Shown piece after piece: positions 2 to 584 of a stretch of DNA of 584 bases. The notes beneath the pieces were generated by a model that was not told where the DNA came from, did no database searches, and was given only the letters and a program-made list of their open reading frames with translations. Origin of the DNA: Escherichia coli (GTDB lineage Bacteria; Pseudomonadota; Gammaproteobacteria; Enterobacterales; Enterobacteriaceae). Within the stretch, counting starts at the first letter, position 1. Each line of letters begins with the position of its first letter. The translations under genes and the position numbers were made by a program. The stretch lies in assembly GCF_003334335.1 (NCBI RefSeq), contig NZ_QOWQ01000168.1. One strand, written 5' to 3'.

Positions 2-484
2 AAGCAGGCGATGGTGGGGATAGTCGGGAGTATCGGCAGCGCCATTGGCGGTGCTTTCGGTGGTGGTGCGTCTGCCTTCACGGGGACGGCCATTCAGGCT
101 GCGGCGGCGAACTTCCATTTCGCGACCGGGGGATTTACGGGGACGGGGGGTAAATATGAACCTGCGGGGATTGTTCATCGCGGGGAGTTTGTCTTCACGA
201 AGGAGGCGACCAGCCGGATTGGTGTCGGCAATCTGTACCGCCTGATGCGGGGCTATGCGGAAGGTGGTTATGTCGGCGGTGCCGGAAGTCCGGCGCAGAT
301 GCGGCGGGCGGAAGGCATTAATTTTAATCAGAACAATCACGTGGTGATTCAGAACGACGGCCCCAACGGGCGGGCAGGGCCGCAGCTGATGAAAGCGGTG
401 TATGAGATGGCCCGCAAGGGGGCACAGGATGAAATCCGGCTGCAGTTGCGTGATGGCGGTATGTTATCAGGGAGCGGTGGATGA
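2..484 (+). CDS. H: Tail tape measure protein, C-terminal portion (lambda gpH-like). The CDS is 5'-partial: the reading frame is open from position 2 with no upstream stop, so the ATG at 11 is an internal Met codon, not the start. Stop codon TGA at 482..484.
   Basis: Open frame from the window edge to the TGA at 482-484. The translation (…GGYVGGAGSPAQMRRAEGINFNQNNHVVIQNDGPNGRAGPQLMKAVYEMARKGAQDEIRLQLRDGGMLSGSGG*) matches what I recall of the C-terminal end of lambda tape measure protein gpH. It is immediately followed by a gpM-like gene with the same ATGA overlap as the lambda H-M junction. The Gly/Ala-rich hydrophobic stretch is typical of tape measure C-terminal regions. Codon usage is GC-rich and coherent throughout. 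Confidence 0.85.
   Translation, partial: KQAMVGIVGSIGSAIGGAFGGGASAFTGTAIQAAAANFHFATGGFTGTGGKYEPAGIVHRGEFVFTKEATSRIGVGNLYRLMRGYAEGGYVGGAGSPAQMRRAEGINFNQNNHVVIQNDGPNGRAGPQLMKAVYEMARKGAQDEIRLQLRDGGMLSGSGG
470..474 (+). promoter_or_regulatory. Shine-Dalgarno / ribosome binding site for the gpM-like gene, embedded in the 3' end of the tape measure coding sequence
   Basis: GGGAG at 470-474, 6 nt upstream of the ATG at 481. There is no intergenic space, which implies translational coupling. Confidence 0.55.
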
Positions 485-584
485 AAACCTTTCGCTGGAA
501 AGTGAAGCCGGATATGGAGGTGAACTCGCAGCCATCGGTGCGTGAAGTGCGTTTTGGTGACGGGTACTCACAGCGTATGGCGGC
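481..584 (+). CDS. M: Minor tail protein M (lambda gpM-like), N-terminal 34 codons. The CDS is 3'-partial: the last complete codon ends at 582 and the gene continues past the window.
   Basis: ATG at 481 is preceded by GGGAG at 470-474 with a 6-nt spacer. The translation MKTFRWKVKPDMEVNSQPSVREVRFGDGYSQRMA closely resembles what I recall of the lambda gpM N-terminus (MKTFRWKV…VRFGDGYSQR…). Its position directly downstream of the tape measure gene matches the conserved H-M-L-K-I-J order. Confidence 0.85.
   Translation, partial: MKTFRWKVKPDMEVNSQPSVREVRFGDGYSQRMA

Follow-up and report, generated by a model that had tools for sequence, protein, structure and literature searches.

The glycine-rich segment near the C terminus of a lambda-type tape measure protein comprises a helix end, a variable uncharged spacer, and the start of a near-invariant motif

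The window (the whole stretch of DNA that was analyzed, 584 nucleotides) carries the 3′ end of a tape measure gene and the beginning of the gene behind it. On the plus strand, frame 2 is open from nucleotide 2 to a TGA stop at 482-484 and encodes the last 160 codons of a lambda-type H gene. The ATG of gene M (481) overlaps the H stop codon (ATGA), and in matching loci the gene directly after H is annotated as “tail tip assembly protein M” or “phage tail protein.” The features of the window are as follows, with residues numbered as in gpH.

2 to 484, plus strand: 3′ end of tape measure gene H (gpH 694-853 and the stop codon), from the open reading frame, phmmer, TIGR01541, and DNA identity
2 to 46, plus strand: frayed terminal portion of a conserved hydrophobic helix that spans gpH about 684-708 (residues 694-708 lie in the window), from conservation, Pfam, AF2, and dN/dS
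14 to 151, plus strand: the reported Gly/Ala-rich uncharged peptide (gpH 698-743), a composite of three parts
47 to 115, plus strand: uncharged low-complexity Gly/Ala/Ser/Thr spacer (gpH 709-731), the probable gpH cleavage zone as judged by fragment mass
116 to 277, plus strand: near-invariant tape-measure motif (gpH 732-785), from conservation, dN/dS, DNA similarity, and tblastn
278 to 373, plus strand: second variable region (gpH 786-817), gapped and poorly conserved, with pLDDT below 50 over most of it
374 to 469, plus strand: C-terminal helix (gpH 818-849), from homology to the 8iyk and 9e7m chains and from AF2
481 to 584, plus strand: start of gene M (distal tail protein), from the sequence and the annotation of matching loci

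An earlier note on this DNA, made from the letters alone, had placed the encoded peptide at the C-terminal end of a tape measure protein (TMP) of lambda type, and in this respect it was right. The 160 residues form a gapless alignment with lambda gpH 694-852 (PDB 8iyk chain H; phmmer E = 5e-73), and the 584 bases share 99.7 to 99.8% identity with prophage and phage sequences in which a gene annotated as tail tape measure protein H precedes M. DNA identity to lambda itself is about 77%, versus 99.7% to prophages in many E. coli genomes; of 5426 complete E. coli genomes, 3503 carry the stretch at varying identity. In one prophage locus (L001, 99.7% identical to the window), the gene order is V-G-T-H-M-L-K-I-J and H has 853 codons. 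The full-length protein scores 420.4 bits over residues 472-813 against TIGR01541 (tape_meas_lam_C) and the 160 residues of the window alone score 125.8 bits, the cutoff of the model being 104.75 bits. The Pfam search that the note had suggested matched PF06791 (TMP_2) at 54-256 and PF09718 (Tape_meas_lam_C) at 627-701 of the full-length protein, and returned no match over 702-853. Membership of the lambda TMP family thus follows from curated-model scores above the cutoff and from the place of the gene between the G/T tail chaperones and M-L-K-I-J.

Given the gapless alignment to lambda gpH and these family matches, the reported peptide corresponds to gpH residues 698-743. It is the glycine-rich region of lambda gpH, a feature already described as the place at which gpH is cut into gpH* and gpHC (PMC12617516). 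The two regions share family and position, the proteins being aligned without gaps over 694-853, and within the 46 residues the window protein differs from lambda at only four sites (V712F, S719F, G720T, and K730N). Unlike lambda, the window allele comes from an E. coli prophage lineage.

The 46-residue peptide quoted in the earlier note is indeed encoded here, although its true start is nucleotide 14; the interval 17-151 given for it yields 45 residues and omits the first Val. It contains 14 Gly (30%), 10 Ala, 5 Phe, 5 Thr, and 3 Ser and not a single Asp, Glu, Lys, or Arg, and it lies within an uncharged run of 49 residues (gpH 695-743) in an 853-residue protein that is 24% charged overall. 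When the whole protein was shuffled, the longest uncharged run averaged 20.8 residues (P about 1e-4 for a run of 49). Gly enrichment was significant after correction for scanning (P = 0.003), and the 46-residue interval with the lowest entropy in the entire protein is the one that starts at residue 698 (2.82 bits, versus a median of 3.63). On these three grounds the charge-free composition dominated by Gly, Ala, Ser, Thr, and Phe, to which the note had drawn attention, is real and goes beyond chance. Its statement that the segment is almost free of charge is true of the window but does not strictly extend to close relatives, since Stx-phage alleles carry S703R and Q725E and lambda carries K730. 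Because the window allele lacks the Lys730 of lambda, its uncharged run measures 49 residues rather than 35.

The arrangement of the glycines is another matter. The note had pointed to small-xxx-small (glycine-zipper-like) spacings, and these are present, although at no more than the frequency that the composition dictates. In 20,000 composition-preserving shuffles of the peptide, 3.7 GxxxG patterns were expected and 4 were observed (P = 0.54), while [GAS]xxx[GAS] occurred 14 times against 14.2 expected (P = 0.67); an i+4 spacing of small residues was no commoner than any other spacing from 1 to 8. Glycine-zipper periodicity was rejected accordingly. In resemblance to GxxxG and glycine-zipper transmembrane motifs, the segment offers a hydrophobic context rich in Gly, Ala, and Ser, with four GxxxG patterns and one GxxxGxxxG (705-713); it differs from them in its chance periodicity, its subthreshold hydropathy, and the lack of conservation of its Gly positions. 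The Kyte-Doolittle hydropathy over 19 residues (KD19) peaks at 1.48 in the segment, below the usual transmembrane threshold of 1.6, which only 21% of 94 relatives reach in this region. An N-terminal stretch of the protein (113-142) reaches 1.83. A crude, position-independent Hessa sum gave +4.4 kcal/mol for the segment and +3.8 kcal/mol for the accepted segment of T5; because such sums fail to discriminate between the two, we draw no evidence against insertion from them. Nor are packing glycines conserved among the 94 relatives: the positions that are Gly in the lambda clade are occupied by Y/N/G (699), Q/K/S (702), M/L/F (705), and S/G/A (709), after which no alignment is possible.

When 1.8 billion representative proteins were searched, 5297 relatives were returned. 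Alignments were made from 94 relatives that span the region and from a curated 39-sequence set (A1); variation and dN/dS within the lambda clade were taken from eight sequences (the window, prophage locus L001, and six phage loci). Comparison of these sequences dissects the reported segment into three elements, namely, the end of a helix, a variable spacer, and the first 12 residues of a motif. This dissection is what our analysis adds, and with it the finding that true constraint resides in the motif downstream of the Gly-rich stretch. The helix end continues an amphipathic or hydrophobic helix of the Tape_meas_lam_C domain. In the 94 relatives its conserved hydrophobic columns are 684, 685, 688, 691, 695, 697, 701, 705, and 708, and columns 686, 690, 694, and 702 are polar or charged.

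The spacer is where the family diverges. Its length ranges from 1 to 55 residues (median, 22) among the 94 relatives, about 12% of which have spacers of only 1 to 10 residues, and its columns are gapped and cannot be aligned. Composition is steadier, with medians of 65% Gly/Ala/Ser/Thr and 5% charged residues, and with bulky hydrophobic residues at about 20%. In the relatives, the longest run free of charge has a median of 27 residues and a minimum of 8. With the lowest-entropy interval of the protein, a length of 1 to 55 residues, and gapped columns, the stretch has the properties of a low-complexity linker. The extreme case is a TMP (P0013) that was seen on 12 contigs and is 53% identical over the matched stretches. 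It has an Asp in the helix end and a single aligned residue across spacer columns 709-732, so that it is about 23 residues shorter here than the window protein and almost spacerless (its flanks read KQAMVGLVDSATTAMGFAGGGFTG), and its gene lies within a complete lambda-like Z-U-V-G-T-H-M-L-K-I-J tail cluster.

Within the lambda clade the picture is one of constraint. The spacer shows no indels among the eight sequences, and its nonconservative changes are V/F712, S/F719, G/T/S720, Q/E725, and K/N730; the helix end varies at S/R703, and 732-779 is almost fixed. With synonymous divergence among these alleles near saturation, dN/dS was 0 to 0.08 in the helix end, 0.10 to 0.28 in the spacer, 0 to 0.04 in the motif, and 0.14 to 0.57 in the second variable region.

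The motif at 732-785 reads FAxGG[YF]TGxGGKYEPxG[IV]VHxGE[FY]V[FM]TKEAT..R[IL]G..NLY..M..GYAxGGxVG, and its first 12 residues are the last 12 of the reported peptide. No exception to G737, G740, G749, or G767 occurs among the 94 sequences, nor any to V751, H752, E755, L771, G781, or G782 among the 93 that have a residue at those positions. DNA similarity to T1-like and Arthrobacter phages begins at nucleotides 119-146 and ends by about nucleotide 279. A tblastn search located the motif in 1020 phage records, some of them from phages that infect Gram-positive bacteria; the copy in Arthrobacter phage Bauer stands just upstream of a separable M23 peptidase domain. A literature search with motif strings and with the PDB codes 9L9P and 25VF returned nothing relevant.

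Structure prediction, which the note had also proposed, gave low-confidence coil over most of 699-741 instead of membrane helices. The AF2 monomer model, built from the 39-sequence set A1, contains a helix at 676-700, coil with pLDDT below 50 over 699-707, 709-724, and 728-741, a motif of moderate confidence, and a C-terminal helix at 820-842 (pLDDT, 70 to 78). The model is poor overall (mean pLDDT, 59; pTM, 0.25), and its low confidence argues only weakly for disorder. Published cryo-EM maps likewise leave gpH from about 690 to 817 unresolved, and two studies of lambda build only gpH 818-849 (PMC10721106, PMC12617516). Window residues 819-849 align to the modeled lambda chains 9e7m and 8iyk, and by this homology the C-terminal helix of the window protein would form, as in lambda, a trimeric coiled coil seated on the gpI plug.

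Taken with the chance spacing, the KD19 of 1.48, the unconserved glycines, and the spacer of 1 to 55 residues, this predicted coil leaves the proposal that all 46 residues form a membrane-inserting, helix-packing zipper of two helices unsupported. The wider premise of the note, that this part of the protein leaves the tail and takes part in a conduit across the envelope, is held in the literature for gpH*, which is said to form that conduit (PMC12617516). What we find comes close to the flexible Gly-rich linker that the note had itself set against a membrane role; the part of its proposal that may survive is membrane contact of the hydrophobic first 15 to 20 residues after cleavage. Such contact is possible for the leading end of gpH* (roughly 695-715); what keeps it under consideration is that charge is strongly avoided, that selection is purifying, and that phage T5 offers an analogy.

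That analogy deserves to be set out. In T5 pb2, as in the lambda-type protein, a long helical rod is followed near the C terminus by an uncharged stretch of about 50 residues (1030-1079 in T5, 695-743 here; 50 versus 49 residues), both proteins are cleaved during assembly, and the last 35 or so residues of the C-terminal fragment form a trimeric coil on the hub plug (PMC10038345). Cryo-EM of T5 has led to the proposal that, as pb2C is expelled, this stretch inserts into the outer membrane (PMC10038345). The differences are nevertheless considerable. The T5 stretch is rich in Ala and Leu, with 6% Gly and a KD19 of 1.82, whereas that of the window has 30% Gly and a KD19 of 1.48; T5 is cut after R1127, 48 residues downstream of its stretch, whereas the fragment masses place the lambda cut within it; and pb2C has a muralytic domain, whereas lambda gpH has no associated enzymatic activity before or after cleavage (PMC12617516). 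A spacer of 1 to 55 residues, with only 21% of relatives reaching a KD19 of 1.6, leaves no conserved room for the two transmembrane helices of the T5 type. No sequence homology to pb2 was detected, in that phmmer and profile searches of the PDB returned no T5 chain. A likeness that we had seen by eye between lambda “ATGG...VHRGEFV” and T5 “R/AEGG...GEHGTEVV” (the slash marks the cut) was dropped because the motif HMM, run against T5 pb2 among 2000 shuffled copies, did not report pb2.

We lean, with somewhat better than even confidence, toward reading the segment as the known Gly-rich junction serving as a flexible, uncharged tether and a processing zone, rather than as a glycine-zipper membrane helix. 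The segment would join the tube-filling helical rod (the future gpH*) to a C-terminal module (the future gpHC), in which the conserved motif is followed by a second spacer and then by the helix seated on the gpI plug. A charge-free tether would allow the rod and the tip-anchored module to take up different registers where tube meets tip. The same spacer would offer an exposed, unstructured stretch for the cut that gpH undergoes during tail assembly. SDS-PAGE masses of 78 to 79 kDa for the N-terminal fragment and about 14 kDa for the other put that cut, by mass arithmetic, at about 710-722, inside the spacer, after which gpHC remains bound to gpI (PMC12617516). The hydrophobic end of the helix, with part of the spacer, would then become the distal, leading end of gpH*, and this is the only part of the reported segment for which membrane contact at ejection seems plausible.

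Some observations sit uneasily with a purely passive tether. The cut zone is placed from SDS-PAGE masses. A passive tether should tolerate charge, yet the spacer is 5% charged, versus 24% for the whole protein, and family-wide it keeps its bulky hydrophobic residues at about 20%. The absence of lambda-clade indels, together with a spacer dN/dS of 0.1 to 0.28, indicates that something beyond flexibility is selected. In T5 pb2, moreover, a similar stretch of 50 uncharged residues is proposed to enter the outer membrane (PMC10038345).

The mechanism by which gpH is cut and the identity of its membrane-entering parts are both described as open questions (PMC12617516), and the segment lies at the presumed place of the cut. 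In this regard, the present analysis offers no new kind of feature; it provides a sharper map for mutagenesis, in which the cleavage zone (709-731), H752 and E755, and the helix end (695-708) can be addressed separately.

The alternative closest to the earlier note is a T5-like one, in which the stretch of about 49 residues inserts as one or two helices into the outer or inner membrane and helps to form the DNA channel once the plug has been released. We regard this as fairly unlikely, although a good deal can be said for it. The uncharged run exceeds chance, spacers throughout the family avoid charge, the crude Hessa sums of the two segments are close, and the stretch of pb2 proposed to enter the outer membrane lies 48 residues upstream of the T5 cut (PMC10038345). 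gpH* becomes protease resistant in LamB liposomes and is the candidate for the trans-envelope channel, and TurboID-ManZ proximity labeling tags gpH during injection (PMC12617516; bioRxiv 10.1101/2025.11.03.685801). Some predictors also give a weak transmembrane call at 691-712; however, the call is described as “much less confident” than that at 116-140, which the predictors favor (PMC12617516) and which falls in the more hydrophobic 113-142 stretch that we regard as the stronger candidate. The only ManYZ-bypass mutation reported at the residue level, A304V (bioRxiv 10.1101/2025.11.03.685801), is likewise far from the segment, and we found no report in the literature of bypass or host-range mutations within gpH 690-745. 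Hydropathy below 1.6 here and in most relatives, GxxxG patterns at chance level, unconserved glycines, and the absence of sequence homology to pb2 all argue against insertion. So do particular members of the family: spacers of 1 to 10 residues leave no room for a second helix, Stx-phage alleles place Arg703 and Glu725 in the stretch, and P0013, within its lambda-like tail cluster, does without the Gly-rich core. Finally, a cut at about 710-722 would send half of the stretch away with gpHC. The tether and processing zone is compatible with a more limited membrane contact by the leading end of gpH*.

The motif next to the spacer raises a different possibility, that of processing in cis, with H752 and E755 of the near-invariant motif forming or recruiting the activity that cuts gpH in the Gly-rich spacer. 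The catalyst of gpH cleavage is stated to be unknown (PMC12617516), and the motif lies directly downstream of the presumed cut zone, with an invariant His and Glu (HxxE) and a dN/dS of 0 to 0.04; it is a module common to the 1020 phage records, Gram-positive hosts included, and its position before the M23 domain of Bauer parallels the T5 cut between rod and muralytic domain (PMC10038345). No similarity to a protease or self-cleaving family emerged, however, Pfam being silent over 702-853 and the PDB profile search returning TMPs only, and the motif HMM did not score the T5 cleavage region above shuffled controls. Moreover, lambda and T5 are the only phages in which cleavage has been demonstrated, and the conservation could equally reflect binding to tip or chaperone proteins. 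We consider this improbable. More speculative, and in our estimation a decidedly long shot, is the combination in which the motif carries out or templates self-processing of the spacer and the exposed Gly-rich, hydrophobic end of gpH* then leads the protein into the host membrane much as a fusion peptide would. Were this so, genome delivery would be governed by a maturation switch in the form of a widespread, uncharacterized TMP module, copies of which occur in more than 1000 sequenced phages infecting Gram-negative and Gram-positive bacteria.

At the other extreme, the spacer could be neutral, low-complexity filler left by drift or slippage between two functional modules. Family-wide, its sequence and length do look unconstrained, and some members nearly lack it. 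Against this stand a dN/dS of 0.10 to 0.28 and zero indels in the lambda clade despite near-saturated synonymous divergence, as well as the consistent avoidance of charge, and we think filler very improbable. Slippage would be suggested by a tandem repeat in the DNA, and none was found within nucleotides 14-151.

An explanation of the same nucleotides at the level of nucleic acid was also considered and set aside: besides the lack of a tandem repeat, there was no Rfam match on either strand at E values up to 1, and the base composition is usual apart from the Gly/Ala codon bias. Other reading frames also contain overlapping ORFs. The GC content of nucleotides 14-151 is slightly raised, presumably a reflection of the Gly and Ala codons.

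Downstream of the spacer (gpH 709-731) lies a near-invariant tape-measure motif, identified through family conservation, within which a short element occurs twice.

Window 116-277, + strand: near-invariant tape-measure motif, gpH 732-785
Window 122-145: mini-repeat copy 1, gpH 734-741, FATGGFTG
Window 254-277: mini-repeat copy 2, gpH 778-785, YAEGGYVG

The motif follows the pattern FAxGG[YF]TGxGGKYEPxG[IV]VHxGE[FY]V[FM]TKEAT..R[IL]G..NLY..M..GYAxGGxVG, in which His752 and Glu755 are invariant, and both mini-repeat copies are conserved among relatives in the form [FY]-A-x-G-G-x-[TV]-G. Pfam holds no model of its own for gpH 732-785. When the motif was used as a tblastn query, matches were found in 1020 phage records, and these included lambda-like phages, T1-like Klebsiella and Escherichia phages, a Mannheimia "tail protein T," and Acinetobacter and Arthrobacter phages; similarity at the DNA level is about 73% and extends as far as the Arthrobacter phages.

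One of the latter, phage Bauer, infects a Gram-positive host, and its tape measure protein (TMP) carries the motif too.

Bauer locus 366-4490: TMP gene, region of interest at about aa 1046-1210

In this protein no Gly-rich uncharged stretch lies upstream of the motif, and a Pfam Peptidase_M23 domain (E = 1e-25) begins about 15 residues past it. Given this arrangement, the motif behaves as a portable module, sited ahead of a releasable C-terminal domain. The relative P0121 (858 aa; the bottom row of A1, our curated 39-sequence alignment) is lambda-like on both flanks, including the C terminus (NDGxNG...RDGGMxSGG), and in that alignment "...FAHGAGVMGEAGPEGIFPLRRG..." stands where the spacer and motif would be. 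This replacement presumably resembles a motif common among other tape measure proteins, which would suggest that the pre-C-terminal module is exchanged in modular fashion.

The Gly-rich stretch (gpH 695-743), elsewhere free of charge, has Arg703 and Glu725 in the alleles of two Stx2a-converting phages and Lys730 in lambda gpH.

Among PDB chains, the family profile matched two further deposited tape measure proteins, 25vf_5 (612 aa) and 9l9p_B (957 aa), through Tape_meas_lam_C domains (repeated or single) followed by Gly-rich stretches; 9l9p_B lacks the conserved motif. A literature search for 25vf and 9l9p found no paper naming either entry. Window 224-280 (GVGNLYRLMRGYAEGGYVG) also gave a weak profile match to cytochrome c553 "GAEELYKKMKGYADGSYGG" (E of about 0.02), which is probably due to chance.

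At its 3′ end, H overlaps the next gene, M. In the closest phage record, that of Escherichia phage PhiR5_1 (99.8% identity), H is annotated in two parts.

Window 481-484, + strand: ATGA, four-base overlap of the H stop and M start
PhiR5_1 locus 1911-4483: gene H, annotated as two CDS meeting at 4244

Four-base overlaps like this ATGA commonly accompany translational coupling. The PhiR5_1 match spans 583 bases, versus 584 in the window, which points to a one-base deletion or sequencing error within the part of that record matching the window.
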